Assembly (NCBI GenBank): GCA_040390125.1
Contig: JAZJYZ010000001.1
Coordinates: forward strand, 163,698-227,697
Source: Patescibacteria group bacterium
Lineage (GTDB): Bacteria; Patescibacteriota; Minisyncoccia; Phycocordibacterales; Phycocordibacteraceae
Direction: 5' to 3'
DNA: 64,000 bases
Shown: one piece after another, positions 2,311-58,709 of the stretch
Position numbering within the stretch: position 1 is the stretch's first letter
Layout of the letters: every line of letters begins with the position of its first letter
The notes under the pieces: generated by a model
The model's database searches: none
Seen by the model: the letters and a program-made list of their open reading frames with translations, nothing else
Told to the model about the DNA's origin: nothing
Program-made: the position numbers and the translations under genes

Positions 2311-2556
2311 GGTTAGATTTTATTAGCGAGTGATAACGAGTTTAGAAAATCTTCCACCCCGTTAAATCCCCGGAACGGGGACGCTTCGTATTCGAAGCGT
2401 ATTTAACAGGGTTAACGAAAATATAGTCGAGTGGCTCTCCTTGTTTTCCTAAAAAAACAGGCCCGCTACGCGGACCCGTGGAGGGAAACTGACTCAAAAA
2501 GTATAGCTTAGAGGAGCAAACGTGTCAACGCTCCAAATGCATCAGCGTTACCACTT

Positions 2557-2925
2557 CTAATTATAGGGAGAAGTCCACTCGTCCAATTTACGTTTCATAG
2601 CACCTCCAATTTGTCGTATCTTACCTATCCCAAAAAGAGTGCCTATCAATCCAGCAAGGAACTTACCGTGTTGTATAATCACTTGTAAAAAATCTTGTCC
2701 CGTTCGTGCTCCTTCAGCAAGCACTTCGCCTCCGTAATAGACTCCAGCTTGTGCCAGCTCCTCTACCGATACGTTCTTTACCTTCGCATTTTCACCTGGT
2801 CCTCTAAAAACATTAGCTACGTCAACAGGAACAGAAAGATCCTCTCGTCTTATAACAGATTTACCACCGCTTGCAGGGTGAGATTCAAAAGCAGAATGAG
2901 TCAATTTTTCAGCAGCAAAAGCCAT
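2557..2925 (-). CDS. Hypothetical 122-aa protein with a C-terminal glycine-zipper amphipathic segment (GKFLAGLIGTLFGIGKI)
   Basis: ORF with a TTGACA-containing upstream region; its C-terminal motif resembles that of the divergent neighbour at 3318-3626. Confidence 0.5.
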   Translation of the reverse strand: MAFAAEKLTHSAFESHPASGGKSVIRREDLSVPVDVANVFRGPGENAKVKNVSVEELAQAGVYYGGEVLAEGARTGQDFLQVIIQHGKFLAGLIGTLFGIGKIRQIGGAMKRKLDEWTSPYN

Positions 2926-3317
2926 ATGTAATTTTGTTCAATAAATTTCTCGGATTTCTAATATCAGTAGGGTACTACACTTAAACCATTCTGTCAAGTA
3001 CTTCTTTCCGAGCATTTTTTAGCCGTATTTTTGGTATTTTCTCGCTTCTATTTTTAATGTTTTCTTTTATTTTTTATTTCTAATGTTTCGCCCTCCTACC
3101 GCCTGTTTCGCTTCCGCTCAACATCGGCGGTTCCCGAAACGGGATCGGAGGAAAATTGAAGCAGTTCAATTTTCCTCCCCAAAAGCCAAAAGCCAAAAGC
3201 TCAACGCTTCCCTGATGTTAGCCTGTATACAGAATGCGCGTACCTTGACAAGTAGTTATATTGCATGTAGGATGACCACCATTAGATTGGGTTTATTAAT
3301 TCCCAGATTTAATTCTA

Positions 3318-3626
3318 TTGCATAAATTTATGAACAATGAAGGTATAGGTATGACTTCCGGCCTCTCAAGACGTGGGAAAATCCGACGTGGAGGTTTAGT
3401 GCAAGCTGGTGGATTCACGGCTGGAGCTGCAGTTGTGGGAGTCATCGGTGAACGTATTTTGGCCGCTCATTCTGGCTTTAGTTTTGACAGTAGCTTTAGA
3501 GACAATCTACCTGCAATTATAGGGGAAGTCACAAACAATTTTGCTGGCCTTCTTGGTATTCTTGGTATTAAGGGAATGGCGGAATTACTTCTTGGGAAAA
3601 AAATTGTTTTAAGGACAGAAAAATAA
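3318..3626 (+). CDS. Hypothetical 102-aa glycine-rich protein (GxxxG zippers; C-terminal FAGLLGILGIKGM), a possible paralog of 2557-2925
   Basis: ORF followed by a clean terminator; upstream TTGACAagtag...TAGGAT promoter-like sequence at 3247-3275. Confidence 0.5.
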   Translation: MHKFMNNEGIGMTSGLSRRGKIRRGGLVQAGGFTAGAAVVGVIGERILAAHSGFSFDSSFRDNLPAIIGEVTNNFAGLLGILGIKGMAELLLGKKIVLRTEK

Positions 3627-3645
3627 AGTTACTTTTTGATTTCAT

Positions 3646-3677
3646 AAAAACCCGAAGTCTCGCTTCGGGTTTTTATT
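3646..3677 (+). terminator. Rho-independent terminator (cccgaag tctcg cttcggg then T-run)
   Basis: GC stem followed by TTTTTATTTT. Confidence 0.7.
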
Positions 3678-3749
3678 TTGTAATTTCCTCCACTAAACCC
3701 TAGCCACTAAACGCTAAACCCTGCTCTGTAATGTTATTCTTACCAAAGA

Positions 3750-5486
3750 ATGGTCGTTCCCGACGCACAATTAAAGACATTTGTGATTGATTCTGGGTTG
3801 GTATCCCGGAAAGATTTTGAATCTGCAGAGAAAACTGCAAAAGATACAGCACAGCCCTTGAGTGACACGCTGGTTTCTGCCGGTATTTTGAGCGAAGACG
3901 ATCTTCGCCGGATGCAGGCACACATACTCGGGATTCCGTTTATATCTCTTTCAGGAATCAAGATAGATTTTGAAGTACTCTCGCTCATTCCGGAGCCTAT
4001 TGCCCGCAAACACAATGTCATTGCATATAAGAAGACAGACGACTCTCTTGAAGTGGCAATGCTCTACACAAGCGACTTGGAGCCTTTGAATTTCATAAAG
4101 AAGAAAATAGGGTTGAAAATTCTACCTCGCCTGACCGACACTGCATCTCTAAAGAGTGCACTCTTGCAGTATCAGAAGTCTCTAAAGGAAGAATTTGGCG
4201 ACATTATTCAAGGTGCTTCGCAGTCGATTACAGATACTGAGAGTTTGGACACCGCAGGCTTAAAGAAGCTTGCTGATGATGTGCCGGTCATTAAGGTGGT
4301 GGACACTCTGCTTCGGCATGCGGTAGTGCAGGGTGCATCGGACATCCATATTGAGCCATTAGAAGAGATGCTCCTGGTGCGGTATCGAATCGACGGGGTA
4401 TTACATGATGCGATGGAGTTGCCAAAAAATATTGCAGCGGGTGTGACGGCACGCATTAAGGTGCTGGCAAACTTAAAACTTGATGAGAAACGTCTTCCGC
4501 AAGATGGTCGCTTTAAGATGGAAGCCGACAAAGAGAGAGTGTCGCTCCGTGTATCTGTGATGCCTACGTATTTTGGAGAAAAAACAGTGATGCGTCTTCT
4601 TCGTGAAGGCGGGGGAGGATTCACACTCGAATCGTTAGGGTTTCATGGTGTTGCACTTGAGCGTGTACATGCAGCATCAAAACAATCGACAGGTATGATT
4701 TTGATGACGGGACCAACGGGAAGTGGAAAGACGACGACCTTGTACACCATTTTGGATATTTTGAACACGCCCGACGTAAATATTTCAACCATTGAAGATC
4801 CTATTGAATATCAAATGCCACGTGTAAACCAGACACAAGTGAGGGCCGACATTGGTTTCACTTTTGCCTCAGGCTTACGCTCTCTTGTGCGTCAAGACCC
4901 GGACATCATCATGGTTGGAGAAATTCGTGACACTGAAACTGCGTCACTTGCAATCAACGCAGCCTTGACGGGACATCTTGTCCTCTCAACCCTTCATACT
5001 AATTCTGCAGCGGCGGCAATACCACGTCTCGTCGACATGGAGGCAGAGCCGTTTCTCTTGGTTTCATCACTTAGAGTGATTATCGGTCAGCGGTTAGTGC
5101 GACGGTTAGCTTCTGATCGTATTGAATACACATTGTCTGAAGAAGAGATTCAGCAGTTGAAAGCCACCATTGATATTGATCGTGTTCTTGCTGTTCTAAA
5201 AGAAGAAAAACACATCCCTACCGAGGCAACCATTAAAGAGATTCCATTCTTTAAGCCGAAAGAAAACGGAGTCTCCGTTGATGGGTACTCTGGGCGTATT
5301 GGTATCCACGAAGTTTTGCCGGTAACTCACGAAATACGAGAGCTTATTTTGAAGCGAGTGTCGGCGGATGACATTGAAGTGCAAGCAAAGCATGAAGGCA
5401 TGCTGACAATGGTGGAGGATGGAATTTTTAAGGCGGCGACAGGAATTACAACGATTGAAGAAGTCCTCCGAGTTATTAGCGAGTAG
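3750..5486 (+). CDS. pilB: Type IV pilus assembly ATPase PilB/GspE family
   Basis: Walker A GPTGSGKTTT; 578 aa; followed by pilC and pilin genes. Confidence 0.9.
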   Translation: MVVPDAQLKTFVIDSGLVSRKDFESAEKTAKDTAQPLSDTLVSAGILSEDDLRRMQAHILGIPFISLSGIKIDFEVLSLIPEPIARKHNVIAYKKTDDSLEVAMLYTSDLEPLNFIKKKIGLKILPRLTDTASLKSALLQYQKSLKEEFGDIIQGASQSITDTESLDTAGLKKLADDVPVIKVVDTLLRHAVVQGASDIHIEPLEEMLLVRYRIDGVLHDAMELPKNIAAGVTARIKVLANLKLDEKRLPQDGRFKMEADKERVSLRVSVMPTYFGEKTVMRLLREGGGGFTLESLGFHGVALERVHAASKQSTGMILMTGPTGSGKTTTLYTILDILNTPDVNISTIEDPIEYQMPRVNQTQVRADIGFTFASGLRSLVRQDPDIIMVGEIRDTETASLAINAALTGHLVLSTLHTNSAAAAIPRLVDMEAEPFLLVSSLRVIIGQRLVRRLASDRIEYTLSEEEIQQLKATIDIDRVLAVLKEEKHIPTEATIKEIPFFKPKENGVSVDGYSGRIGIHEVLPVTHEIRELILKRVSADDIEVQAKHEGMLTMVEDGIFKAATGITTIEEVLRVISE

Positions 5487-5576: not shown

Positions 5577-6791
5577 ATGAAATTCAAAGTTACTGCTATC
5601 ACTAAAAGCGGAGAAATGTACACGGACGTCGTCGATGTGGCGGATCGTTTTCAGGTATACCGCGATATACGCGAAAAAGGTGACACCGTTCTTGATTTAA
5701 AAGAGGAGGGGACAGGAAAATCCTTCTCACTCAATTTCTCCCTCGATATATTCAATCCTATTTCGCTTGATGAGAAGGTAGTGCTGGCACGCAATCTTGC
5801 TGCAATGCTTGAAGCAGGCCTCACTATTTCTCGTTCACTTGAAGTGATGAAGCGACAAACAAGAAACGTGCGAATGCAAAACACTCTGACTGCCATTATT
5901 GCTGATGTGAAGAAGGGCGAAACATTCTCCGCCGCTCTTGCCGGGTTCCCTAAGGTTTTTTCGCAGTTGATGATTGCTATGGTGCGTGCCGGAGAAGAAT
6001 CAGGAAAACTCACTGAGGCACTACGGGTCGTTTCCATTCAGATGGAGCGCTCTTCTAATCTGCAGAAAAAAATTAAAGGTGCGCTTATTTACCCAGGAAT
6101 AGTCTTGAGTGCAATGGTGGGCATTGGAATACTTATGCTCGTCTATGTTGTGCCGACGTTGTCTGGAACGTTCAAAGAATTGAAAGTGTCTCTCCCCCCA
6201 ACCACTCAGTTTATTATTGGTGCAAGCGATTTCTTGATTCACAACACACTCGTCGCTCTGCTGTGTTTTGGCGTTCTGGCGGTAGTATGTGTGTGGGCTA
6301 TGCGGTCAGTAAGAGGTAAGCATTTCTTAGGATGGCTTTTTTTGAAAATTCCCGTTATTGGTCCATTAATGGTGGAAATTAATGTTGCACGCACGACTCG
6401 AACACTCGCATCGTTATTTGCTTCGGGTGTTAATGCGATTTTGTCGGTGAAAATTACGTGCGATGTTCTTGAGAATGTTCAATATAAGAAGGTGCTCATT
6501 GAGGCAGAAAAAAGTCTCACTGAAGGTTCACCTTTGTCAGTAACTTTTGCAAAATATCCAAAACTTTTTCCGCCGTTGGTTTCTGAAATCATGGCGGTTG
6601 GCGAAGAAACGGGACGTTTGTCGGTTCTTCTTAAAGAGAATGCAGAATTTTATGAGGATTCGGTGGAACGTCAAACCAAGGACATGTCTACAATCATTGA
6701 GCCGTTCTTGATGATTATTATTGGTGTCATGGTTGGGTTTTTTGCGCTCTCAATGATCGCCCCAATCTATTCATTGTCGAGTGGAATTTAA
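5577..6791 (+). CDS. pilC: Type IV pilus inner-membrane platform protein PilC/GspF
   Basis: 404 aa polytopic membrane protein directly downstream of pilB. Confidence 0.88.
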   Translation: MKFKVTAITKSGEMYTDVVDVADRFQVYRDIREKGDTVLDLKEEGTGKSFSLNFSLDIFNPISLDEKVVLARNLAAMLEAGLTISRSLEVMKRQTRNVRMQNTLTAIIADVKKGETFSAALAGFPKVFSQLMIAMVRAGEESGKLTEALRVVSIQMERSSNLQKKIKGALIYPGIVLSAMVGIGILMLVYVVPTLSGTFKELKVSLPPTTQFIIGASDFLIHNTLVALLCFGVLAVVCVWAMRSVRGKHFLGWLFLKIPVIGPLMVEINVARTTRTLASLFASGVNAILSVKITCDVLENVQYKKVLIEAEKSLTEGSPLSVTFAKYPKLFPPLVSEIMAVGEETGRLSVLLKENAEFYEDSVERQTKDMSTIIEPFLMIIIGVMVGFFALSMIAPIYSLSSGI

Positions 6792-7274
6792 ATGAGGTGT
6801 CAGCTTTCAGCTTTCAGCTTTCAGGCGACGCCTCGTCGGATCCGAAGGGATCATAGGAGGAAAGAAAGCTTTTCGCGAGGGATGACACTTATTGAAGTAG
6901 TCGTCGCCGTCTCTTTGATGCTTATAATTTTCTTGGGATTTTTTGGTGCCTATGTGGCGTCTGCTGACTTGGTGCGGAGCACTTCTGCCCGAAGTGGAGC
7001 TCTCTTTCTTATGGCAAACAGAATGGAATACATAAGGGGGTTGGCGTATGGCTCTATAGGTACTGTGGGTGGAACGCCGTCAGGAAGTCTTGTGGCTAGT
7101 GAGCCAAGGATTTTGAATGGTATTACTTACACCATTCGTACAACGGTTGCATACATTGATGACGGAGCGAATGGTGCCGGTGCCGGCGATTATAAAACAG
7201 TGAAAGTTGAAGCAGATTGGAATTTTAGAAATGTCTCACAAAGTATCTCTACTGTTACCTATGTCGCACCGTAA
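6792..7274 (+). CDS. Type IV pilin / pseudopilin with a prepilin-type N-terminal methylation motif (SRG|MTLIEVVVAV); true start uncertain
   Basis: Class III signal hallmark G followed by xTLIE with E at +5 and a hydrophobic helix. The only in-frame ATG upstream gives a 30-aa leader overlapping the AGCTTTCAG repeats; ATG at 6882 would give no leader. Confidence 0.75.
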   Translation: MRCQLSAFSFQATPRRIRRDHRRKESFSRGMTLIEVVVAVSLMLIIFLGFFGAYVASADLVRSTSARSGALFLMANRMEYIRGLAYGSIGTVGGTPSGSLVASEPRILNGITYTIRTTVAYIDDGANGAGAGDYKTVKVEADWNFRNVSQSISTVTYVAP

Positions 7275-7857: not shown

Positions 7858-9104
7858 AGAATCTACCTCAGGTTCCAGCTTTCAGGTTCCAGCTTTCAGC
7901 TACAGGCAACAGAAGGGTGCGGGGGTTTTTGACGATTTTTGTACTCGTTGCTTCCTCCGTGTTTTTATTTTTACTCTCTGAGCTTATGGGCTCACTGACG
8001 TTAGAGCGTTTAGGGGGAACAATAGAGGCCGACAGTGAAAAAGCTTTTCATATAGCCGAAGCCGGGCTTGAGTACTATCGTTGGCACTTTGCAGAGTTTC
8101 CAGGTGATCTACAAGACGGTACTGCAAGTGCGGGGCCCTATGAGCATGATGTAGCGGATCCAGAAACTAGTAACACAATTGGAACATTTTCTCTTGATAT
8201 CTCAGGCATAACTTCATGCGGTGTACTCACATCCGCCACAGTGAACTCAACTGGTTCCATGGCTAGTAGCTCAACACACCGAACTACGTTGATTGCTGAA
8301 TATGGAAAACCCACACTTTCCGCATCAACGAGTCCGGCGAAGTCCGATGCTACAGCAATTGCAACATCGCTCCCAAGTTTGAAGACGTACGCACAGTCGT
8401 CAGGCGTTTACATTGCGACATCCACAGGGTATGGATACAAAATTGTTTTCAAATCGAACGGAACATTTGATGCGTCGCCCGTTACTGGTGTCACGGAGGT
8501 ATGGGGGTATTCAACGGATGATGGGTGGCAACAAGAGGATACGATTATTTCTACAACAGGTGTTGCGGTGAACCATACTGTGCCTTCCGAATGTCCGGTG
8601 GTATTTGTTGAAGATACTGTCTGGCTTCAAGGCACTGTTTCGGGCAAAGTTACGTTAGTTTCCGCAAATATAACAAACGCTGGCGTCGATCCGAATATTG
8701 TACTTACCGGAAACATTACGTACGCCCACGCATACGATGATGGTTTTACGGCGATTGCTGAAGATTCAGTACTGATATCACTAGATTCTCCTGACGTCAT
8801 GCAACTCTCAGGAATCTATGTAGCCAGCAAGGGTCACTTTGGGCGGCATCGCTATGATGCATCCGGCACTCACGCTGTTCCCGTAAGCCTTCAGTCGTCA
8901 GTGCTCCGCTCCACCCTCAACACATTTGGGACATTTGCTTCAATGGAGACAGTTGATACTAAATGGCTCTCTTCCGGTGCGTTTATTTCAGGCTATAGCA
9001 CAAGGACTGATGTCCATGATCCTTTCTTAGGAAAGCTACCTCCGCCGTTCACTCCGGTTACTTCAAATGACTTCCGTTTCACAGACTGGAGAATACAGGA
9101 GTAG
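7854..9104 (+). CDS. PilX-like minor pilin / pilus-associated protein (N-terminal TM helix, then an AFHIAEAGLEY motif typical of the PilX N domain)
   Basis: TM helix LTIFVLVASSVFLFLL followed by an A.AEAG motif; a GTG at 7917 is an alternative start, because the first 60 nt are AGCTTTCAG repeats. Confidence 0.6.
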   Translation: MKNLPQVPAFRFQLSATGNRRVRGFLTIFVLVASSVFLFLLSELMGSLTLERLGGTIEADSEKAFHIAEAGLEYYRWHFAEFPGDLQDGTASAGPYEHDVADPETSNTIGTFSLDISGITSCGVLTSATVNSTGSMASSSTHRTTLIAEYGKPTLSASTSPAKSDATAIATSLPSLKTYAQSSGVYIATSTGYGYKIVFKSNGTFDASPVTGVTEVWGYSTDDGWQQEDTIISTTGVAVNHTVPSECPVVFVEDTVWLQGTVSGKVTLVSANITNAGVDPNIVLTGNITYAHAYDDGFTAIAEDSVLISLDSPDVMQLSGIYVASKGHFGRHRYDASGTHAVPVSLQSSVLRSTLNTFGTFASMETVDTKWLSSGAFISGYSTRTDVHDPFLGKLPPPFTPVTSNDFRFTDWRIQE

Positions 9105-14030: not shown

Positions 14031-14091
14031 TTTAAAAAAGAGATCCCCCCTAAACACTAGATGATTCCTGCGGATCCGATGAAACTGGTCC

Positions 14092-14520
14092 CTACGGACA
14101 CGACGAAGCGTCGCCTAAACCCTGCTTAATTTTCTCCGCCACTTCTTTTGCTCCTCCTTCTTTATATTCAGTTCCTATCCACGGCTTATGGGGGTCTCCT
14201 TCAATGCGGGGGATGATGTGCATGTGTGCATGAAATACTAGCTGATGTGCGGCAGGTTCGTTGTTCATTGTTATGTTAATGCCGTCTGCTCCGACGGCAT
14301 TTTTTATGACGGGTGCAAGATAGTACACTGTTTTCATTACTTCTAGCCAAACACTTTCCGGCATGTCCAGCATATTTCTATAATGAACTTTTGGAACTAC
14401 GAGTGTGTGGCCTGCATTATTAGGACGGATATCAAGAAATGCGAACGTATGCTCGTTTTCAAATAGCATTTCTGCCGGGATTTCTTTGGCAATTATTTTA
14501 CAAAATAGACAATCAGTCAT
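14092..14520 (-). CDS. HIT-family (histidine triad) nucleotide hydrolase
   Basis: HAHMHIIP histidine triad motif. Confidence 0.9.
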   Translation of the reverse strand: MTDCLFCKIIAKEIPAEMLFENEHTFAFLDIRPNNAGHTLVVPKVHYRNMLDMPESVWLEVMKTVYYLAPVIKNAVGADGINITMNNEPAAHQLVFHAHMHIIPRIEGDPHKPWIGTEYKEGGAKEVAEKIKQGLGDASSCP

Positions 14521-14623
14521 AGGTTAGGTGTCAGCTGCCAGCTTTCAGGTTCCAGCTTCTCTTAATTCAAAGCTGAAAGCTGGAACCTGAAAGCTTCCTC
14601 TCTAAAATGTTACCATGTCCTAA

Positions 14624-22400: not shown

Positions 22401-22460
22401 ACAGGTAGCTGTCAGCTTTCAGGTGTCAGCTTTCAGCTTTAAATCTAGAACTTCATAATT

Positions 22461-30406: not shown

Positions 30407-30537
30407 TCGTTTGACGAGAATCGCAATCTGCTTTGTTGCAGGTTGCGGTGCTCTCTCGCCGTACGTAAGAGTACGGCTCGGTTTGCTCCTCGCCTGCGCC
30501 TCGCATCTCATCGATTCTCTCCAAACTCCAAATTAAA

Positions 30538-30566
30538 AACCGCCCGAAAGGGCGTTTTTTAATTTG
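30538..30566. terminator. Bidirectional rho-independent terminator aaaaaccgcccgaaagggcgtttttt
   Basis: GC-rich hairpin with A-run upstream and T-run downstream. Confidence 0.75.
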
Positions 30567-30597
30567 TGTTGCGTACAAGTTCTACGTTCCCCTGCTC

Positions 30598-30741
30598 TTA
30601 GGCTCTTTTATACCATTCTTTGGTAAGTTTATTGTATACATAATCGAATGGCATAGAAAAAGGATGAGGGTGGTGTTTAAAACCTGGACCAGTCGTTTCA
30701 TAACCACCTCGTCGTGAAATTAATTTTAGTCTCTCTTTCAT
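30598..30741 (-). CDS. Hypothetical 47-aa basic protein (MKERLKLISRRGGYETTGPGFKHHPHPFSMPFDYVYNKLTKEWYKRA), antisense to the S10 operon. The 61-aa track ORF starts inside the promoter, so the downstream ATG is preferred
   Basis: Consensus promoter immediately upstream and terminator immediately downstream on the minus strand. Confidence 0.3.
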   Translation of the reverse strand: MKERLKLISRRGGYETTGPGFKHHPHPFSMPFDYVYNKLTKEWYKRA

Positions 30742-30773
30742 AGATAAAATATAAGTTTTTAAGTGATACGTAA

Positions 30774-30802
30774 ATAATAGCATATTAGAAACCTTCTGTC
30801 AA
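30774..30802 (-). promoter_or_regulatory. Near-consensus sigma70-type promoter on the minus strand: TTGACA, 17-nt spacer, TATTAT
   Basis: -35 at 30797-30802 and -10 at 30774-30779 (read as the reverse complement); exact 17-nt spacer. Confidence 0.5.
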
Positions 30803-30906
30803 GTATTTCTATAGTGAGTTCAACAAGTAAGTGTACCACTCCAGACTTCTAAGGGGGGGCACCTTTGGTAAAATACCGAGGTTTCGTCGTGGTATTTTTA
30901 GGTTTC

Positions 30907-30935
30907 TTGCATCTTTTAGGTGCTTTGTGTATAGT
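30907..30935 (+). promoter_or_regulatory. Candidate promoter for the rplC operon: TTGCAT, 17-nt spacer, TATAGT
   Basis: Hexamers with an exact 17-nt spacer, about 120 nt upstream of rplC. Confidence 0.45.
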
Positions 30936-31014
30936 AGCTGAAACGCTACGTTTGCCTCCGAAACATCGAAAGGGTTGGACCCTTCGACAAGCTCAGGGTA
31001 AACCAATGGTATAT

Positions 31015-31047
31015 CGCACACTGCGAATACCGGTGTGCGTTTTTCTT
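31015..31047 (+). terminator. Leader hairpin cgcacac..gtgtgcg followed by TTTTTCTTT, 10 nt upstream of the rplC start; a candidate attenuator
   Basis: 7-bp GC-rich stem with a T-run; an alternative upstream hairpin cgaaaggg/cccttcg lies at 30967-30986. Confidence 0.45.
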
Positions 31048-31056
31048 TAAACAAAA

Positions 31057-31666: not shown

Positions 31667-32347
31667 ATGAAAGCATCTATATACAACACAAGTGCAAAAG
31701 AAGTAGGGGAAATCGAACTCCCAGATAGCATTTTCGGTGTAAAGCGAAATGATGCCTTGGTGCATCAGGTTGTTCTTGCCATGCAGGCAAACGCTCGCAC
31801 ACCAGTGGCTCACACGAAGGGTCGTGGTGAAGTACGAGGAGGAGGTAAGAAGCCATGGAAGCAAAAAGGCACTGGACGAGCTCGTCATGGTTCTATTCGT
31901 TCTCCTATTTGGAGAGGAGGAGGCACCACACATGGTCCTGTAAAGGAACGTGATTTCTCGCAGAAGATAAATAAGAAGATGCGCGCAAAAGCAGTTGCAA
32001 CAGTTCTTTCAGAAAAACTCCGCAAAGGAAAAATGATTTTTGTTGACTCGCTTTCCTTCAAGGCTCCAAAGACAAAAGATGCAAAGGCAACCCTCGGAGG
32101 TCTTGCTAAGATTGCAGGATTTGCAGAGCTTGCTACCCGAAGAAATAATGCAGCGCTCATTCTTCTTTCGAAGCATGATGTTGCTGCAGTAAAGAGTTTC
32201 CGCAACATGAAGAATGTGATGGTTGATGAAGCAAGAAATGCAAACCCTGTTGACTTGCTTACCTACCGATATATCCTCATTGTAGATCCACAGGTTGCTG
32301 TTAAAACCCTCTCATCCCGCCTTTCTGATATTAAAGCTAAAAGCTAA
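31667..32347 (+). CDS. rplD: 50S ribosomal protein L4 (start at ATG 31667; C-terminus ...IKAKS encoded by AAAGCTAAAAGC repeats)
   Basis: 227-aa ORF reading as L4 (RGEVRGGGKKPWKQKGTGRARHGS... central region); position between rplC and rplW. Confidence 0.9.
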   Translation: MKASIYNTSAKEVGEIELPDSIFGVKRNDALVHQVVLAMQANARTPVAHTKGRGEVRGGGKKPWKQKGTGRARHGSIRSPIWRGGGTTHGPVKERDFSQKINKKMRAKAVATVLSEKLRKGKMIFVDSLSFKAPKTKDAKATLGGLAKIAGFAELATRRNNAALILLSKHDVAAVKSFRNMKNVMVDEARNANPVDLLTYRYILIVDPQVAVKTLSSRLSDIKAKS

Positions 32348-32374
32348 AAGCTATAACCTAAAAGCTGACTATAT

Positions 32375-33727: not shown

Positions 33728-36700
33728 ATGAACGTTATTTCTCGAAGTGTCAATTTTTCGTTTCTTTTTTTCGGGATCTCTTTTGCTTTGGTAGCAGTGC
33801 TTTTTGTTGCATTGCCAACGCCTGTTCATGCTGGTCCTCAAACTGGTGGTTGCGGAGAATCTTGGGGATATGAGTATACCGTAGTAGTAAACCCGTATAC
33901 GCCATTTACTCCTGCTCATGATGCCTGGCACTCACTTCACGGCGGTGATAGCTACACGGTACAGAGTGCATATCAAATAGCTAGCGTTGGTGATGAGGGA
34001 TGTCCTGTTAGTGATCCACCATACATAGCCCCTACTGTTGGCGTTGTCGTAGTTCCTTTAACTATTACTGCGGGTGAATCTTCCCAGCTTGCGTGGGGGG
34101 CCGAGAATACACTTTCTTGTACGGGCACGAACTTTTCAACTGGCTCGGCCACTCAAGGTGTAGTCACTGTTTCTCCAACAGTGACTACAACCTATTCTGT
34201 TAGTTGTACTGACGGTGCTACTACTGTATCGTCGAGTGCTACGCTATTTGTTAATCCACCACCTGTACCCACAGCATCTCTAAGCGCAAGTACAAATTCT
34301 ATTGTCTCAGGGAGCCCCTCAACGCTCACGTGGAATTCCACGAACGCCACTTCGTGTGCAGGTACTAATTTTTCAACCGGCGGAGCAACGGCAGGATCTG
34401 TGAGCGTTTCGCCAGTGAGTAGCACTTCATACCTTGTATCTTGCACAGGGCTTAGTGGATCGGCTTCAGCTTCTGTTACTGTCACCGTAACGCCTCCAGT
34501 CCTCCAAGCAAGTTGTTCAGTTTCATCCACGTCTGCCATTGTTGGGCAAGCAGTCACGTGGACTGCCGTACCTTCCGGTGGTACCGGCTCCTACACGTAT
34601 TCCTGGAGTGGAAGTGATAGTCTTTCAGGTACAGGAAGTTCAGTTTCGAAATCATACTCATCGACGGGTACCAAAACTGGCTCTGTTAGTGTCACCTCTG
34701 GATCGCAAACAACTTCGGTGACTTGCTCGAACAGTGTGTCGATAAGTAATGCTCCAGTTGCTGTTTCTTGTTCAGTATCTCCAACCTCTGCCACCGTCGG
34801 TAGCTCTGCTACGTGGAGCGCAAGTGCCTCAGGTGGCACCGGCTCCTACACGTATTCGTGGACTGGTACTGACAGTCTTTCCGGCACGGGTGCGTCTGTA
34901 TCCAAAACATATTCCACGACGGGAACAAAAACTGGATCGGTAACGGCAACCTCCGGCGGACAATCGGCTACAGCAAATTGTTCAAACAGTGTAGTGGTGA
35001 GTAACACTCCAGTAACTGGTTCTTGTTCGGTGTCGCCATCTTCTCAAACAACAGGCAGTGCCGTCACGTGGAGCGCAAGTGCTTCCGGTGGCACCGGCTC
35101 GTACAGCTATGTATGGAGTGGCACCGATAGTCTTTCAGGCAGTGCCAGTTCCGTTTCGAAGACGTATTCAAGCACTGGCACGAAGAGTGGCTCAGTAATA
35201 ATTACTTCAGGGGGAAATTCTACGAGCGTGACCTGTGCAAACTCGGTATCAGTAAGTTATCCGGCAATTACCGGCTCGTGCTCTGTGTCGCCTACAACTA
35301 TCACCGCAGGTGGTTCTGCAACGTGGAGTGCAAGTGCTTCTGGTGGCTCCGGTTCCTACACGTATTCTTGGAGTGGTACGGACAGCCTTTCTGGCACAGG
35401 CACATCAGTCACAAAAACCTACTCCAGTTCGGGTGCGAAGACTGCCTCGATTACTATTACTTCAGGCGGAAGTTCCGAGGTAATTAACTGCTCTAATGCA
35501 CTCACGGTAGGTAATGTGCCGGTAGGTGGTTCCTGCTCTGTAACGCCAACCAGTATGTATGCCGGTAGTTCTGCAACATGGACTGCTGTACCTTCAGGTG
35601 GCACCGGCTCGTACACGTATGTATGGAGTGGCACTGACAGTCTTTCAGGTACTGCTAGCTCGGTTTCAAAAACGTATTCAGGAAGCGGTATTAAGACGGG
35701 TTCCGTCGCAATCACTTCAGGAGGAAATTCTGCTACTGTGACGTGTTCGAATTCTGTTGCAGTGAGTGTGACGTTGTCGGATCTCATTACTGGTGCTGTG
35801 TCTCCAACTTCTGCCGTTGCAGGTGTTGCACAAATGTTTTCTGCAACAATCACCAACATTGGGCAGTCTGGGACGAATGGTGCTTTCACGAGTTTATTCC
35901 AGCGAGCAACATCTGCAGGTGGTGCAAATACGACCGATATTGGCACCGATGGCTCTCCGAGTGTGTCTGCAAATGGTACAGACGTGGCTGGGCTTTCGTA
36001 TGCGTTTCCCTCAGGAGGTATTTGGTACTTACGTGTTTGGGCCGACAAAAGCGGAACGGCGGATTCGGGGGCCATTAATGAGTCGAGTGAAAGCAATAAC
36101 TCAGGTGCATGGACTGCAATCTCTGTGTCGAGCCCAACATTGAGTGCGTACTGTAATGTCGCACCTGCCTCGGGATATTCTGGAGATACATTTACGTGGA
36201 CGGCATACCCATCTGGTGGCACCGGCTCCTACACCTATTCGTGGACTGGCAGTGACGGACTCTCCGGCACCACGCAAAGTGTTGCAAAATCATATTCGAC
36301 TTCTGGCACTAAGACTGGTTCCGTGACGGTGGTTTCTGGCGGGCAATCGGTAGGTGCCACATGTGCATCTGCAAATCTATCGAATGTTCCAAGTGCGCTC
36401 ATAACCGCAACTCCAAATTCTATTATTCTTGGCAACACGTCTCGTCTTGACTGGACTTCTTCAAACGCATCTTCCTGTAACAGTTCTGCTTTCTCGACCG
36501 GCGGGGCACCATCGGGTTCCGTAACCGTTACCCCTTTAACTACAAAAACCTATGACCTGACCTGTACTGATGGCACACGAACAGGTGTCTCTAGCGCAAC
36601 GGTGACCGTCGTTCCTGTTGGACTCACGCTTTCAATCAATCCTTCAACGACAGTTCGTCAAGGGGATCCTGCAACAGTTAACTGGTCAGTGAGTGGAAGT

Positions 36701-40441: not shown

Positions 40442-40507
40442 GGAGCTTTTAGGCAACGCTTCGTTGGATCCGTAGGGATCATAGGAAAAAGAAAAAACAA
40501 AAACAAC

Positions 40508-46471: not shown

Positions 46472-46999
46472 ATGGAACTCCACACACTTACACGCACAAA
46501 GAGTAACAAAGCAACCCGCCGTGTTGGCCGTGGAGGTAAGCGTGGCAAGACGTCTGGCCGTGGTTCAAAGGGTCAGAAGTCACGTGCTGGTGCAAAATTT
46601 CGTCCTGAATGGCGTGACATCATCAAAAAAATTCCAAAGCGACGTGGATACGGCAGAAACCGTTCTCGAACAGCCGTGCCACGCATCCGTTTTGCAACCG
46701 TGAATTTTGATACTCTCTCGAGACAGTTCAAGGCGGGGGACATCATTACTCCGATTGCATTGGTTAAGGCTGGAGCTGTACGCCGTATTTCTGGCAAAGT
46801 TCCTCCGATAAAGATTCTTGCTCGAGGAGAGATCAGCATGAAGCTCGCTTTTGAGGACGTTCTCATTTCAGAAGTAGCTAAGACACTAATTGAAAAAGCT
46901 GGTGGCACTGTCCGTGCTCCTATTTCAAAGAAGGTACTGCCTTCTAAAAAAGACACTTCTCCTAAAAAAGCTGCTTCCTCCCTAAAAGCTAAAAGCTAA
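46472..46999 (+). CDS. rplO: 50S ribosomal protein L15, directly after rpsE (no L30 gene), with a K/S-rich C-terminal tail
   Basis: MELHTLTRTKSNKATRRVGRGGKRGKTSGRG... Confidence 0.9.
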   Translation: MELHTLTRTKSNKATRRVGRGGKRGKTSGRGSKGQKSRAGAKFRPEWRDIIKKIPKRRGYGRNRSRTAVPRIRFATVNFDTLSRQFKAGDIITPIALVKAGAVRRISGKVPPIKILARGEISMKLAFEDVLISEVAKTLIEKAGGTVRAPISKKVLPSKKDTSPKKAASSLKAKS

Positions 47000-47011
47000 A
47001 AGCTGGTTACT

Positions 47012-52382: not shown

Positions 52383-55265
52383 ATGCCAGGATTTAATCCC
52401 AACAAAGGAATCGATACAAAAGCGGCAAAGCTCTCACCTGAGCATCAGCTTACGAAGCTTCGTGAGACTGCACGCTCAGGTGGTGGTGGCAGGGGTCAGC
52501 GAGGAGGTCCGGCATTGCCCGTTGAAACCTCTGTCCTTCCGGCTGTTTCGCAAGCTCTTGATGGCACCGAACAGGAAGAGAAGAGTGGCATCATTCTTGA
52601 ACTCACACCAGACTCAAATGACAAGGACATGGAAGAGCTTTTGGGGATTCTCCACGCTAGAGGATTCAAAGCGGTGATGAAAGAGCTCGACCGCATAGAT
52701 AATCCGCACCTTGAAGACGATTTTCATCGTTTACTTGTTCAATACCGAACGGCAGGGCACTCGATTCCGGGTCTTGATCCTAACGACCCTCTAGCAAAGG
52801 CACTCGATTTTGTACTTTTGGATGTTGCAGTTCCTGAGGCAGCACCGGGAAAACCAGGAGGCTCTTTGAAAGATATCTGTACGCAAATGGAGCAGTTTTA
52901 TTTGAGTATGATTCCGTTTGTTGCCCTGCCGGATACTGTGTTTTTGAAGGATTGGCAAAAACGACGGAGAATTCATCTCCAACATTTCACATTGGAAATC
53001 GCTGTTTCGCACACAAAAGAAGAGGCAGTCTTTTACCTATCAGTGCCTCGTGCGAAACGGGAGACTTTCGAAAAGCAGATTTTTGCGATGTTTCCTCGTG
53101 CGCGTGTCGTTGAAAAGAAGGATGACTACAATATCTTTAACCAGTTTGGTGCAACTGTGGGTGCTTCTGCGTACTATCATCGTCCGCCACCAATCCCCTT
53201 GAAGACCTCTGAGGAGTTTACCCACGATCCTTTGAACGTCACCCTAGCTGCACTATCGAAAATTACAAAAGAAGGGGAGGGAGCTGCAATTCAGATTGCG
53301 GTTGCTCCTGCGGGCGATTATCACTCGAAGCGTATCCGCTATGTGCTCGATGAGCTCAATAAAGGAAAGAGCGGGGCGAACGATGTGTTCCGAAAGAATA
53401 TGTATATGGAGCATTATTCGCCGATGCGTCGATTTTTCCAGAACCTCGGGAAAGGTTTCAAACTATTTCTTGAAAGTTCCGAGGAAAAAAAGAAGGACGA
53501 TAAGCATATTGATGCCTTTGCGACAGAGGCAGTGTCCAAAAAACTGAAGAGCGTTATTGTGGGTGTGAATTTACGCATCGTTGCTTCGGCTCGAACAAAA
53601 GAACGGGCTCATGCGATTCTCACTGAGATCGAAAATACGTTCGGGCAGTACGAAGATGCAAAGGCAAACCGACTTCGCTTTAAGCATTTAAAAAAGAAAG
53701 AACTCCGAGATTTCCTACGTGCATTTATCTTTCGAACGTTCGATCGCCAAGCACACGAGGGCTTTTTCTATCAGCTTTGGCTTGAGTGGACACGCAAAGC
53801 TGCGCCAACGCCTTTAATGCATAAGATTCCTTTGATGCCTATGAACTTGGCAGAACTTTCAACCATTTTTCACCTCACCATTGCTGGTGGTACGGCGTCT
53901 CGTGAAGCGAAGACTGCAAGCGCTAAGCTTGCACCTGCACCACCAGGGCTTCCAGACAAAGGAATTGTCATTGGTAATAATCGCTACTCGAATATTGCAA
54001 CACCCATTCATTTCACGCCGGACGACAGGCTCCGTCACATGTACACCATCGGACAGACCGGTACCGGTAAAACAAACTTCTTGAAGAATATGATTATTCA
54101 AGACATCGAAAATGGGGAAGGAGTGTGCTTCATCGACCCGCACGGCGTGGATGTATTGGAGATACTCTCACGCATTCCGAAAGAACGTTATGACGATCTC
54201 ATTTACTTCGACCCGGCCTATACCGCACGGCCCATGGGCCTCAACATGCTTGAGTATGATCCACGGTTTCCTGAGCAAAAGACATTCGTGGTGGATGAGA
54301 TGTTTAAGATTTTCAAAAAATTGTACGGCGATGTGCCGGAAGCTTTTGGTCCTATCTTCGAGCAGTACTTCCGTAATGCCACCATGCTTGTGCTTGAGGA
54401 CCCTGACACTGGTTCCACGTTGATGGATATTTCACGAGTACTCGCTGACGATGAATTCCGTGCGTTGAAACTTTCTCGTTGCAGAAATCCCGTCGTGACG
54501 CATTTCTGGGAAGACATTGCGGAAAATGTGCGTGGCGAAGGAGACTTGCGTAACGTCGTGCCGTACATCACGTCAAAGTTCGACATCTTCATCGCAAACG
54601 AAATTATGCGTCCAATCATAGGTCAGCAACGTTCCGCCTTCAATTTCAAGGACATCATGGACAATAAGAAGATACTTTTAGTGAACCTCTCCAAGGGTCG
54701 ACTTGGTGATGTGAATGCCAACCTCATTGGTCTTGTGATTGTCGGCAAGATTATGATGACCGCACTTGCACGCACGGAATATCTACATTTGAATCCGCCG
54801 AACTTCTATCTATATATCGACGAATTCCAAAATATCACCACCAACACTATTTCAACGATTCTCTCTGAAGCACGTAAATTCCGTCTCTCTATGACCATGG
54901 CACACCAGTATGTCGCACAGCTTGGCAAAGAAATCAAAGAGGCTGTTTTCGGTAACGTGGGCACCATGGCGGTGTTCCGTGTTGGGCCAGACGATGCTGA
55001 ATATATTTCAAAACAATTTCAGCCAACATTTGAAGTCACTGATTTCCTTAAAATCGATAATTACCATGCATACTTGAAGCTTCTTGCAGGAGGAAAGCCA
55101 GCACCACCGTTTAGTATAGAAACTATTCCATTCCAGCCGGGCGATTTCCTTAACATTGATGCTCTGAAGCAGATTTCATATCAGCGCTATGGACGAGCAC
55201 GAGAAGCGGTTGAAGCTGATATCCGTCAGAAATACGACCAGATGCGGGAAAACCAGAAAGACTAG
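52383..55265 (+). CDS. 960-aa protein. The C-terminal half is a VirD4/TraD/TrwB-like type IV coupling-protein P-loop ATPase; the N-terminal ~450 aa has no recognisable domain
   Basis: Walker A GQTGTGKTN followed by FIDPHG, Walker B YLYIDEFQNI, and an SEARKFRLSMTMAHQ TraD/VirD4-type motif. Confidence 0.7.
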   Translation: MPGFNPNKGIDTKAAKLSPEHQLTKLRETARSGGGGRGQRGGPALPVETSVLPAVSQALDGTEQEEKSGIILELTPDSNDKDMEELLGILHARGFKAVMKELDRIDNPHLEDDFHRLLVQYRTAGHSIPGLDPNDPLAKALDFVLLDVAVPEAAPGKPGGSLKDICTQMEQFYLSMIPFVALPDTVFLKDWQKRRRIHLQHFTLEIAVSHTKEEAVFYLSVPRAKRETFEKQIFAMFPRARVVEKKDDYNIFNQFGATVGASAYYHRPPPIPLKTSEEFTHDPLNVTLAALSKITKEGEGAAIQIAVAPAGDYHSKRIRYVLDELNKGKSGANDVFRKNMYMEHYSPMRRFFQNLGKGFKLFLESSEEKKKDDKHIDAFATEAVSKKLKSVIVGVNLRIVASARTKERAHAILTEIENTFGQYEDAKANRLRFKHLKKKELRDFLRAFIFRTFDRQAHEGFFYQLWLEWTRKAAPTPLMHKIPLMPMNLAELSTIFHLTIAGGTASREAKTASAKLAPAPPGLPDKGIVIGNNRYSNIATPIHFTPDDRLRHMYTIGQTGTGKTNFLKNMIIQDIENGEGVCFIDPHGVDVLEILSRIPKERYDDLIYFDPAYTARPMGLNMLEYDPRFPEQKTFVVDEMFKIFKKLYGDVPEAFGPIFEQYFRNATMLVLEDPDTGSTLMDISRVLADDEFRALKLSRCRNPVVTHFWEDIAENVRGEGDLRNVVPYITSKFDIFIANEIMRPIIGQQRSAFNFKDIMDNKKILLVNLSKGRLGDVNANLIGLVIVGKIMMTALARTEYLHLNPPNFYLYIDEFQNITTNTISTILSEARKFRLSMTMAHQYVAQLGKEIKEAVFGNVGTMAVFRVGPDDAEYISKQFQPTFEVTDFLKIDNYHAYLKLLAGGKPAPPFSIETIPFQPGDFLNIDALKQISYQRYGRAREAVEADIRQKYDQMRENQKD

Positions 55266-55391
55266 GCGACGCTTCGTCGGATCCGTAGGGATCACTTAGT
55301 GTTTATAGAAACTTCTTATAATTTCTGAGCTCGCCCTCCCCTAAACACTAAACGCTAGCCCCTAACCCCTCTTAGTGGTATAGTCGCTTCA

Positions 55392-56003: not shown

Positions 56004-56041
56004 CTTCCAGCTTCCAGCTTCCAGCTTCCAGAGAAAATTGT

Positions 56042-58660: not shown

Positions 58661-58709
58661 ATGAAATTAGGGATTAGTGTTTAGTGGATAGTGTTTAGGG
58701 AAAGAAAAT

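Follow-up and report, generated by a model that had tools for sequence, protein, structure and literature searches.

A variable spacer between two conserved core units

The window analysed here is a 64-kb (64,000-nucleotide) stretch of a Patescibacteria MAG. Positions 2557-3677 form the spacer that separates two conserved, divergent core units in this Paceibacteria (Patescibacteria/CPR) genome, pilB-pilC-pilins (plus strand) and nusA-ppa (minus strand), with the pilin-like genes (GMTLIEV... N-termini) located 3' of pilC. The divergent order of nusA and pilB is retained in 33 relatives, with spacers of 90 to 4621 bp that carry different ORFs in different relatives. An earlier note on this DNA had described two oppositely oriented ORFs in the spacer (ORF A and ORF B hereafter), their TTGACA motifs and a recurring 17-mer, all of which we found at the positions given. 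The features of the locus are listed below; those given as promoters, terminators or transcription starts were assigned purely by match to a consensus.

2450..2528, minus strand: conserved promoter-plus-hairpin block, 3' of ORF A and 5' of nusA
2557..2925, minus strand: ORF A (NCBI V4449_00955), 122 aa, member of family 'X'
2954..2962, minus strand: proximal ATTAGAAAT repeat, at the predicted ORF A transcription start
2969..2997, minus strand: ORF A promoter, -35 TTGACA (2997..2992), 17-nt spacer, -10 TACCCT (2974..2969)
2989..3005, minus strand: 17-mer AGAAGTACTTGACAGAA, covering the -35 TTGACA of the ORF A promoter together with 8 nt 5' and 3 nt 3' of it
3076..3084, minus strand: distal copy of the ATTAGAAAT repeat, 122 nt farther upstream
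3085..3178, no strand assigned: GC-rich multi-hairpin element, 94 nt
3158..3246, plus strand: diverged copy (the distal one) of the pilB 5' region, spanning about -70 to +12
3245..3273, plus strand: ORF B promoter, TTGACA (3245-3250), 17 nt, TAGGAT
3351..3626, plus strand: ORF B, 91 aa from ATG 3351 (P0002)
3644..3676, plus strand: ORF B intrinsic terminator, 15-bp stem followed by a T run
3678..3762, plus strand: pilB 5' region, proximal copy, lying just 5' of pilB (ATG 3750)
30774..30810, minus strand: second 17-mer copy, promoter TTGACA (30802..30797), 17 nt, TATTAT

Coding potential and predicted proteins

Both ORFs are likely to be real, if small, genes, given that their in-frame codon-usage log-odds (0.237 for ORF A, 0.33 for ORF B) compare with 0.27 +/- 0.11 for chunks of true genes and -0.49 +/- 0.28 for off-frame chunks. 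ORF A has the 122 aa ascribed to it earlier, and no obvious Shine-Dalgarno sequence. The 102 aa ascribed to ORF B can be read from TTG 3318 (3318..3626), but the gene callers start it further downstream, at ATG 3351 (91 aa) or at ATG 3330 (98 aa, NCBI V4449_00960). The GC3 of both genes is unusually low (0.27 and 0.30; the median over genes is 0.42-0.43), and only 1% of 100-codon chunks have a GC3 of 0.30 or less.

Since evidence of conservation is absent for ORF B, it could be a non-functional ORF. A broader version of this explanation, which we regard as rather unlikely, supposes that ORF B and a 47-aa ORF elsewhere in the window (30598-30741, minus strand) are both untranslated, and that their units yield small non-coding RNAs or nothing functional. 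The lack of an ORF B homologue deprives it of evolutionary evidence of coding, its structure model is of low confidence, and the coding score of the 47-aa ORF is ambiguous (0.079). However, the codon score of ORF B lies within the range of true genes while its other five frames are all negative, an AAGG is positioned 8-11 nt 5' of ATG 3351, and two independent gene callers predict the gene. No Rfam family fits either, the only sub-threshold matches being on the ORF B terminator hairpin.

The N-terminal half of ORF A is poorly predicted and is followed by a central QNVSL-type motif, a C-terminal hydrophobic helix and a basic tail. Its single-sequence AlphaFold model has low confidence (pLDDT 47.5), and its maximum Kyte-Doolittle mean over 19 residues is 1.48 (usual cut-off 1.6), so that membrane association is plausible yet weak. 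We tentatively picture a protein whose N-terminal half is flexible and whose hydrophobic helix, near the C-terminus, leads into a cationic amphipathic tail; it may be a small accessory protein that is anchored in the membrane or peripheral to it. For ORF B, the model, equally single-sequence and of low confidence (pLDDT 63.6), has helices at residues 7-42 and 47-80, with a marginal maximum Kyte-Doolittle mean of 1.62. The charges (+5 at the N-terminus, -2 in the loop, +3 at the C-terminus) fit an N-in/C-in hairpin, and ORF B may tentatively be viewed as a small integral membrane protein of this kind, with two helices and basic ends. Our best guess is that both are small membrane-associated accessory proteins.

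Database searches added little to these predictions. Neither ORF, nor the 47-aa ORF, nor the ORF A family as a whole gave anything notable in Pfam, PHROGs, NCBIfam or PADLOC; in Pfam, ORF A, ORF B and 10 ORF A family members were without any family at E <= 1, and a sequence search of the PDB with the ORF A family profile and with ORF B returned nothing below E 0.1. The best PHROGs match of ORF B was phrog_32449 (unknown function) at E 0.38. Comparing the ORF B model with the PDB and BFVD using Foldseek retrieved generic helical hairpins such as the ATP synthase c subunit and EsxB, all at E >= 1.

The two proteins are probably not paralogs

The two proteins had been proposed to share a C-terminal GxxxG-zipper segment, and a pairwise comparison revealed no similarity beyond composition. 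BLASTP produced no alignment at E <= 100. The Smith-Waterman score of 27 is below the shuffle mean of 28-30 and is attained by 60-70% of shuffles, and the two segments put forward as homologous score 25 against 21.2 +/- 4.5, a value reached by 21% of shuffles. With hhalign, the ORF A family profile matched ORF B at a probability of 0.7-0.9%. The shared segment thus does not rise above chance by any of these methods, and ORF A and ORF B appear to be unrelated, their likeness reflecting the Gly/Leu/Ile composition common to hydrophobic helices.

The zipper itself is hardly better supported. Taking [GAS]xxxGxxxG in a membrane helix as the criterion for a glycine zipper, ORF A contains one match to the pattern [GAS]xxxGxxx[GAS], AGLIGTLFG at residues 91-99 (AxxxGxxxG), but only two of nine ORF A family members have the pattern inside the C-terminal hydrophobic segment. 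The ORF B segment shows GxxG spacing and no zipper match, and the only GxxxG of that protein is in its first helix. Both proteins share small size and Gly-rich hydrophobic helices with the glycine-zipper proteins of Pfam (Gly-zipper_Omp, Gly-zipper_OmpA, Gly-zipper_YMGG, Rick_17kDa_Anti), but neither matches these models even at E <= 1. As for the membrane-active character suggested earlier, membrane association remains plausible, each protein having a moderately hydrophobic, Gly-containing helix. For bacteriocins, holins or stress peptides in particular, searches of Pfam, PHROGs, NCBIfam, PADLOC and the PDB gave no match, and the genes identified beside the two ORFs (pilB, pilC, pilins, nusA, ppa) include no lysin, immunity or transporter gene.

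A TTGACA-containing motif does precede each ORF, as TTGACA-17-TACCCT for ORF A and TTGACA-17-TAGGAT for ORF B, both spacers falling within the 16-18 nt typical of sigma-70-type promoters. The flanks of the two motifs have little in common beyond the hexamer (AGAAGTAC-TTGACA-GAA versus CGCGTACC-TTGACA-AGT), which argues against related promoter motifs; the two seem to be independent promoters. Of a shared regulon the window shows no sign: the 17-mer TTCTGTCAAGTAYTTCT has two copies in these 64 kb of a 749-kb contig (2989-3005 and 30794-30810, the second being the recurrence reported near 30793), and the count remains two when up to three mismatches are tolerated. Its core, RTACTTGACAGAR, occurs once per locus in 11 related loci, each time upstream of the ORF A homologue.

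It is therefore very improbable, in our view, that ORF A and ORF B are divergent, paralogous glycine-zipper peptides, active on membranes and co-regulated through a shared regulon motif. Gly-rich hydrophobic helices in both proteins, a TTGACA before each, and a 17-mer recurring once elsewhere, far above chance, would fit such a pair. However, the proteins resemble each other in composition only (hhalign probability below 1%), ORF B is missing from every relative with an ORF A homologue, so that the pair is not conserved, the zipper varies within the ORF A family, the promoter flanks differ, the 17-mer is limited to two copies in 64 kb, and holin, bacteriocin and defence families are unmatched. 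If true, the pair would have represented a small new regulated membrane-peptide system, which these results do not support. We instead favour, at somewhat better than even odds for the explanation as a whole (variable spacer and the readings of ORF A and ORF B taken jointly), an ordinary variable-spacer locus that holds two unrelated small genes.

Predicted control elements of ORF A

ORF A would be transcribed from its own sigma-70-type promoter, of which the 17-mer forms the -35 region. This predicted promoter is nearly invariant among relatives, the block from -35 to -10 showing zero variation in nine related loci, and it is bracketed by the two ATTAGAAAT repeats, the only copies of that sequence in the window. 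An equivalent pair, 123 nt apart, is found in eight related loci.

The 94-nt GC-rich element is present only in the window and in two related loci (L001 and L003). It is 94-97% identical between them while the flanking spacer is 62-71% identical, and it has no match in Rfam. As it is missing from the other relatives, it reads as an inserted element that would be part of neither ORF A nor ORF B.

The second copy of the 17-mer appears to belong to another promoter with an identical extended -35 region. This promoter faces the doubtful 47-aa ORF, in an unusually long rpsJ-rplC spacer. Against an expectation of 0.02 copies in the window, the two known copies, written as AGAARTACTTGACAGAA, agree at 16 of 17 positions and both occupy -35 positions. 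Such a match exceeds what two independent promoters would need, and may point to a site for a shared regulator or to a copied promoter module. A metagenome scan with ribosomal protein L3, which yielded only a comparison of rpsJ-rplC spacer lengths, recovered no close relatives (identity <= 59%).

The ORF A family

The ORF A family comprises about 10 sequence clusters among 5.8 billion and is, judging from these searches, tiny, undescribed and restricted to one Paceibacteria genus. A phmmer search of 1.8 billion representatives with ORF A recovered P0003 (E 1e-19), P0004 (2e-13), P0005 (3e-10) and P0006 (3e-9), and a profile search added P0008-P0011. P0005 in turn matches a 113-aa ORF of L001 at E 1e-12; we had considered ORF A as a replacement of an unrelated gene of L001 and L003, an idea dropped when P0005, recovered by the exhaustive search, provided the link between them. 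Other spacer ORFs, of 153 aa in L081 and of 194 and 78 aa in L002, aligned to the family with hhalign no better than the top shuffles; the 194-aa ORF has a weak BLASTP match to P0005 (E 0.009), the sole one among these extra ORFs.

All members with readable flanks come from one Paceibacteria genus and lie between a divergent pilB and a co-directional nusA. In the five loci where both flanks can be read (L081, L084, L087, L088 and L089), pilB is followed by the family gene on the other strand and then by nusA, and ppa is found beyond nusA wherever the contig extends that far. Five short contigs (L082, L083, L085, L086 and L090) reach one flank each, and none conflicts with this order. Most relatives with the pilB/nusA arrangement lack a family gene, with spacers down to 90 bp. 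The position immediately upstream of nusA and co-directional with it recalls that of RimP (DUF150), whose gene usually sits right before nusA in bacteria. Unlike RimP, ORF A has no Pfam or NCBIfam match and differs in size and in its predicted helical, partly disordered architecture, and many relatives have no gene immediately upstream of nusA.

With dN/dS of about 0.2-0.6 (0.22-0.64) versus 0.003-0.04 in nusA, the family is shown by these ratios to be fast-evolving and under weak purifying selection. Its alleles do not track the flanking genes: between the window and L081, the dS of nusA reaches 2.0, but the family proteins are 48% identical (dS 0.87), while between the window and L001 the dS of nusA is 0.63, but the identity of the family proteins is about 18%. 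The identity matrices of the N- and C-terminal parts also disagree. P0008, for instance, is 58-67% identical to P0009 and P0011 in its N-part and 70-85% identical to P0003 and P0005 in its C-part, which shows the family to be mosaic, with N- and C-terminal modules that reassort. This mosaicism, together with the decoupling of alleles from flanking genes, suggests exchange by recombination.

These traits invite a comparison with type IV pili. In Pseudomonas aeruginosa, a variable pilA/accessory-gene locus (pilA allele groups) is divergent from pilB, and the ORF A family is likewise variable, adjoins a divergent pilB, has recombining alleles and is set between conserved flanks. Type IV pilins begin with a prepilin leader (G|F/M-T-L-x-E) and continue into a hydrophobic helix; in contrast to P. 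aeruginosa pilins, the ORF A family has neither this leader nor an N-terminal hydrophobic helix, and in a 10-member alignment the N-termini are polar and variable, the sole hydrophobic segment being C-terminal. The family could still serve the type IV pilus machinery in an accessory or regulatory capacity, under diversifying selection because pili mediate attachment to the host in episymbiotic Patescibacteria, an explanation to which we give a fairly low chance. In that case the constant place beside pilB and the tight conservation of the promoter would stem from co-regulation with pilB. The constant adjacency to pilB-pilC-pilins, a conserved control region of 230-240 nt common to the family gene and pilB, the P. 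aeruginosa precedent, and the fast evolution, mosaicism and recombination exchange expected of genes for interaction surfaces would speak for it. Apart from lacking the pilin hallmarks, however, the family shows no Pfam or PDB similarity to pilus proteins, is absent from most relatives with the same pilB/nusA order, and adjoins nusA just as much as pilB.

Bolder still, and quite improbable in our estimation, would be a joint reading in which the family is a recombining 'variable-allele' membrane-anchored factor tied to the type IV pilus/host-interaction apparatus of an episymbiotic Paceibacteria genus. According to this reading, the ORF A promoter would be controlled by an operator formed by the two ATTAGAAAT sites, 123 nt apart around the invariant -35 to -10 block, and the pilB-nusA spacer would act as a dedicated landing pad capturing small membrane genes like ORF B. 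A search of the literature on Patescibacteria pili, hypervariable loci and NusA autoregulation yielded nothing relevant among the papers listed. The ordinary variable spacer with two unrelated genes remains the reading that we prefer. The locus also resembles the intergenic 'hot spots' of lineage-specific orphan genes, as both ORFs have conserved flanks, atypical composition and no known family; ORF A, however, is no true orphan, since it has a few relatives, a position that is fixed among them and a promoter of unusual conservation.

ORF B as a probable strain-specific insertion

ORF B seems to be a singleton cassette, specific to this strain and inserted upstream of pilB, that brings a promoter and a strong intrinsic terminator of its own. 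A word-index search of 5.8 billion proteins returned only the self match, and homologues were absent from 90 loci of the nusA region and of the ORF A family, from the remainder of the window, and from viral contigs, phage records and plasmids, where the sole plasmid match had E 0.8. Distant homologues may have gone undetected, as this large database was searched by word index and relatives of ORF A were revealed by exhaustive HMMER.

The insertion is apparently bracketed by two diverged copies of a region of roughly 80 nt from the 5' side of pilB. The proximal copy is 87% identical to the corresponding region of L001 and 59% to the distal copy, which retains a remnant start codon (ATG 3234-3236, then CGC GTA CCT TGA) and a heptamer repeat, CCAAAAG x3, at 3179-3200. 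With two such copies, an intact one still precedes pilB. That ORF B itself derives from the 5' coding region of pilB was considered and found no support at the DNA or protein level.

A selfish or mobile cassette carrying a toxic small membrane protein, either holin-like or similar to a type I toxin, is a possibility that we hold to be unlikely. An insertion confined to this strain and equipped with a strong promoter and terminator of its own, the predicted two-helix hairpin with basic termini, the atypically low GC3 and the lack of homologues, which is common for cargo of mobile origin, would all be in line with it, and the predicted hairpin is reminiscent of class II holins, which have two transmembrane helices, N-in/C-in topology and a charged C-terminus. 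Contrary to these, ORF B has no holin match in PHROGs or Pfam and no PADLOC match, and Foldseek against viral structures gave only E >= 1. Neither an endolysin gene nor any phage gene is among the neighbours that could be identified, which are pilB, nusA and the ORF A gene. Type I toxin-antitoxin systems usually involve peptides of less than 60 aa and an overlapping antisense RNA, whereas ORF B has 91 aa and the opposite strand of its cassette carries no promoter-like site or other sign of an antitoxin or antisense RNA. We saw no integrase, transposase or inverted repeats, and the flanking repeats, at about 80 nt and only 59% identity, are unlike target-site duplications. A bacteriocin locus, which would combine a leader peptide with adjacent genes for immunity, transport or modification, is not indicated either, with no such genes among the identified neighbours ppa, nusA, pilB, pilC and the pilins.

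Collectively, these observations make the locus a clearly bounded case of the way in which small accessory genes may arise and be exchanged in reduced CPR genomes: one fixed slot flanked by core operons harbours a fast-evolving mosaic family, plus a singleton insertion in this strain, and conservation is far stronger in the promoter of the slot than in the gene under its control. The locus opens no new question by itself, and its use would lie in the annotation of 'hypothetical proteins' of Patescibacteria and in the choice of candidates for studies of host interaction.

Predicted transcription signals before nusA

The block between ORF A and nusA consists of TTGACA-17-TATACT (2528..2500), AGTCAGTTTCCCTCC, a hairpin (2479..2457) and T7. 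It is likely that this block combines the terminator of the ORF A transcript with the nusA leader, and transcription of ORF A would most likely end at the conserved hairpin and T7 before nusA. Such a widely conserved promoter and terminator-like hairpin before nusA may be of broader interest for the regulation of transcription in the phylum. In the window, TTGACA is enriched in intergenic DNA, 10 of its 20 copies lying in the 17% that is non-coding (binomial P = 7e-4).

Two Unrelated Small Genes Between nusA and pilB

The window is part of a metagenome-assembled genome of the Patescibacteria (CPR). In it, a variable slot separating two core operons is occupied by the gene of a small protein specific to one genus (ORF A), which evolves fast, recombines and lies under a highly conserved predicted promoter, and by a singleton insertion (ORF B). 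This is a new but ordinary sort of thing for a CPR genome.

Features of the slot and its flanks (window coordinates)
497-1021, minus: ppa, conserved unit flanking the ORF A/B region
1060-2310, minus: nusA, conserved unit with ppa
2557-2925, minus: ORF A, 122 aa
2997-2992, minus: TTGACA of the promoter-like site of ORF A, followed by 17 nt and TACCCT
3158-3246: distal copy of the pilB 5' region
3245-3273, plus: promoter-like site of ORF B (TTGACA 3245-3250, 17 nt, TAGGAT)
3351-3626, plus: ORF B, 91 aa
3644-3676, plus: terminator of ORF B, 15-bp stem
3678-3762: proximal copy of the pilB 5' region, directly before pilB, 87% identical to that of L001, a locus from one of the closest genomes
3750-5486, plus: pilB, conserved unit on the other side
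5577-6791, plus: pilC, in the pilB unit
plus strand: pilin-like genes of the pilB-pilC unit

Both ORFs are present in the ORF listing and are annotated by NCBI, ORF A as 'hypothetical protein V4449_00955' and ORF B as V4449_00960; the contig that carries ORF A measures 748,944 bp. Their in-frame codon-usage log-odds (0.237 for ORF A, 0.33 for ORF B) compare with 0.27 ± 0.11 for chunks of real genes and -0.49 ± 0.28 for off-frame chunks, and all remaining frames of both are negative. Their GC3 is 0.27-0.30 versus 0.42-0.43 for the genes of the window, at or below the 1% tail. Gene callers start ORF B at ATG 3351 (91 aa) or ATG 3330 (98 aa), not at TTG 3318.

The earlier note had taken the two products for related glycine-zipper proteins. 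Yet BLASTP gives no alignment between them at E ≤ 100, their best local alignment score (27) falls below the mean for shuffled sequences (28-30), and the two segments cited as similar score 25 against 21.2 ± 4.5. The formal [GAS]xxxGxxx[GAS] pattern occurs in ORF A only, the cited segment of ORF B having GxxG spacing, and the profile of the ORF A family does not match ORF B. The genes are unrelated and the zipper is no conserved feature. The ORFs, their promoter-like sites and the repeated 17-mer motif described in that note are real and the protein similarity is not. Most of the note's interpretation is left unsupported, the motif being a promoter and the regulon signal not demonstrated.

A Small, Recombining Family at the ORF A Position

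A word-index search of 5.8 billion proteins matched ORF A only to itself, and phmmer, run exhaustively against 1.8 billion representatives, then recovered P0003-P0006, four homologues 117-126 aa long (E 1e-19 to 3e-9), to which a profile search added P0008-P0011. P0009 is a 113-aa ORF found at the equivalent position in L001 and L003, the closest genomes; its reading as a gene unrelated to ORF A, after blank tblastn and BLASTP comparisons with ORF A, was dropped, as P0005 links it to the family (BLASTP E 1e-12). In the five loci with readable flanks (L081, L084, L087, L088, L089), pilC and pilB share a strand, and the family gene and nusA (with ppa if the contig reaches it) are on the opposite one; the short contigs L082, L083, L085, L086 and L090 show a single flank each, none conflicting with that order. 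The family is accordingly tiny (about 10 clusters) and restricted to a single genus-level group, within which identity to the window is 88-97% for NusA, 78-93% for PilB, 67-74% for PilC and 61-74% for Ppa. No relative of the family was found in Pfam, PHROGs, NCBIfam, PADLOC or the PDB.

Members share a central (A)P(E/K)VQN(V/T)SL(P) motif, preceded by a variable, polar N-terminal half and followed by a C-terminal hydrophobic segment and a Lys/Arg/Trp-rich tail that ends in SPY(R/N) or PRDRY. The hydropathy of ORF A (1.48) is below the threshold for a classical transmembrane helix. Several members have a strongly amphipathic tail, with a hydrophobic moment reaching 0.67. The single-sequence AlphaFold model of ORF A is poor (pLDDT 47.5), with two long helices after residues 1-50, which lack confident structure.

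The dN/dS of the family is 0.22-0.64, versus 0.003-0.04 for nusA over these same genome pairs, which shows that purifying selection on it is real but weak. Its divergence is not clock-like: L001 and L087 have a nusA dS of 0.56 and family proteins 73% identical, window and L001 proteins share only about 18% identity despite a nusA dS of 0.63, and the closest allele to ORF A lies in L081 (48% identity; nusA dS 2.0). The two halves of the proteins also disagree in their relationships, P0008 grouping with P0009/P0011 in its N-part (58-67%) and with P0003/P0005 in its C-part (70-85%). We conclude that alleles and half-alleles are swapped by recombination within conserved flanks.

Accessory genes collect generally at the pilB-nusA spacer, which is a hot spot for them in the loci compared (L001-L090). 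In 33 relatives pilB and nusA retain their divergent arrangement, with spacers of 90 to 4621 bp, and spacer ORFs vary by clade: a 68/80-aa pair is common to L017 and L075, proteins of 310-470 aa to L025, L055 and L064, and L081 has an additional 153-aa ORF preceded by a separate copy of the conserved promoter.

A Conserved Predicted Promoter Contains the 17-mer

TTGACA behaves as the genuine -35 element in this genome, ten of its 20 copies lying inside the intergenic 17% of the window (P = 7e-4). In an alignment of the spacer from pilB to the family gene (12 loci, basal spacer 229-244 nt), nine relatives show no variation in GAGTACTTGACAGAGTGATTTAAGTGTAGTACCCT, which runs from -35 through -10 with the spacer included. 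Deviations in the window are confined to the upstream flank, with AAG in place of GAG, and to two positions of the spacer; the coding sequence just 3' of the promoter has diverged almost completely. The 17-mer is the -35 hexamer of the predicted ORF A promoter plus its flanks. Its core RTACTTGACAGAR occurs once per locus in 11 of 11 related loci, each time at the family promoter. In L025 and L030, more distant relatives without the family gene, TACTTGACA forms the -35 region of the promoter directly 5' of nusA; L081 has it ahead of the family gene, as a second promoter.

The recurrence of the 17-mer holds (two copies versus 0.02 expected), and no further copy was found in the 64-kb window at ≤ 3 mismatches; two copies do not make the regulon that had been envisaged. 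The second (30794-30810) is the -35 region of a TTGACA-17-TATTAT site aimed at an antisense ORF of 47 aa that forms a singleton cluster and whose coding score (0.079) is ambiguous. The 16/17 identity of the copies suggests that a promoter module was copied or that they share a factor site. This ORF sits in the rpsJ-rplC spacer (30407-31056), which at 650 nt is far above the median for 61 CPR loci (about 66 nt). Besides the ORF and the second 17-mer promoter, the spacer contains a bidirectional terminator and several GC hairpins.

Exactly two copies of ATTAGAAAT occur in the 64 kb (2954-2962 and 3076-3084, minus), one on either side of the ORF A promoter at a distance of 122 nt from each other. 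Eight related loci (L001, L082-L085, L088-L090) retain such a pair, spaced by exactly 123 nt. They could be operator sites. That the family is a variable factor linked to the pilus or to host interaction, under operator control, strikes us as unlikely.

ORF B Is a Singleton Insertion

No relative of ORF B was found by word-index search in the 5.8-billion-protein database, nor in the 90 nusA-region and family loci, in the rest of the window, or in viral contigs, phage records and plasmids, and no family library or PDB entry matched it. In the spacer alignment, the complete cassette (promoter, ORF and terminator) is found in the window only, bracketed by two copies of the ~80-nt pilB 5' region. 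An intact copy still precedes pilB, beyond the ORF B terminator; the distal copy, with a remnant start codon (ATG 3234-3236, then CGC GTA CCT TGA), is only 57-59% identical to the proximal one and to every relative. The insertion of the cassette therefore involved a diverged region upstream of pilB, which was either duplicated or recombined with.

The model of ORF B is a helical hairpin (helices 7-42 and 47-80, pLDDT 63.6) with basic N- and C-termini and an acidic loop; Foldseek matched it to generic hairpins only (E ≥ 1). We read ORF B as a putative strain-specific small integral membrane protein, and consider it rather unlikely that it is not translated at all.

A Candidate Attenuator in the nusA Leader

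Between ORF A and nusA, a block at 2528-2450 (minus) comprises TTGACA-17-TATACT, then AGUCAGUUUCCCUCC, a 10-bp GC hairpin and U7. It is 85-93% conserved in L001-L004, its promoter spacer being variable. A terminator-like hairpin with a T-run lies ≤ 220 nt 5' of nusA in 55 of 77 relatives' nusA loci, versus 2 of 225 control windows inside nusA, and is retained even where the divergent pilB begins at a distance of only 90 nt; stems are complementary throughout, with sequences differing between clades. Rfam has no match to the block. The hairpin probably ends the ORF A transcript, and it also has the look of an attenuator in the nusA leader, so far undescribed, that may serve NusA autoregulation. 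Leaders autoregulated by NusA are known in Escherichia coli and Bacillus subtilis, which this candidate would parallel.

The AGTCAGTTTCCCTCC, GC hairpin and T7 series starts within about 20 nt of TTGACA-17-TATACT, and the promoter-hairpin arrangement is also present in L007, L025 and L030. From the hairpin to the nusA start (about 2315-2440), the window has ~85 nt more than L001-L003, holding two hairpins, AAATACGCTTCGAATACGAAGCGT and CCCCGTTCCGGGGATTTAACGGGG, where relatives have heptamer repeats.

Hairpin Elements and Repeats

A 94-nt multi-hairpin element (3085-3178) folds strongly on both strands (z = -5.0 and -3.9), the first hairpin arm being an inverted copy of native GGAGGAAAA. It is 94-97% identical among the window, L001 and L003, versus 62-71% for the surrounding spacer, and absent from other relatives; Rfam gave no match. 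It looks like a recently acquired, transferred or spreading element, possibly a small mobile insertion, and not like a riboswitch.

Short arrays of repeats 7 nt (or 14 nt) long, for instance AGCTTTC, CCAAAAG or CTAAACA in either orientation, are found in many intergenic spacers across the window; the period is 7 or 14 in about 25 of 45 TRF rows. Upstream of pilB the periodicity is kept, with the heptamer sequence varying between species.

Examples of heptamer-type arrays (window coordinates)
1027-1051
3179-3200
3690-3716
6800-6824
7868-7899
14531-14595
22407-22440
32333-32366
46982-47004
56002-56031
58674-58698

A ~50-nt element, AGCTTTCAGGCGACGCCTCGTCGGATCCGAAGGGATCATAGGAGGAAAGAAA, is repeated at 6816-6867, 40444-40495 and 55257-55308 and inverted at 14083-14117; it combines a heptamer, hairpins and a Shine-Dalgarno-like GGAGG, and seems to be located just 5' of gene starts. 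Five tandem 255-nt repeats (34463-35725; 62-71% identical, 50% GC), with a sixth partial copy at 36193-36270, presumably belong to a gene for a repeat-domain surface protein. A tmRNA gene was detected at 61494-61900 (minus) by Rfam (103.7 bits), ARAGORN reporting none, and a perfect TTGACA-18-TATAAT lies about 200 nt 5' of it (62097).
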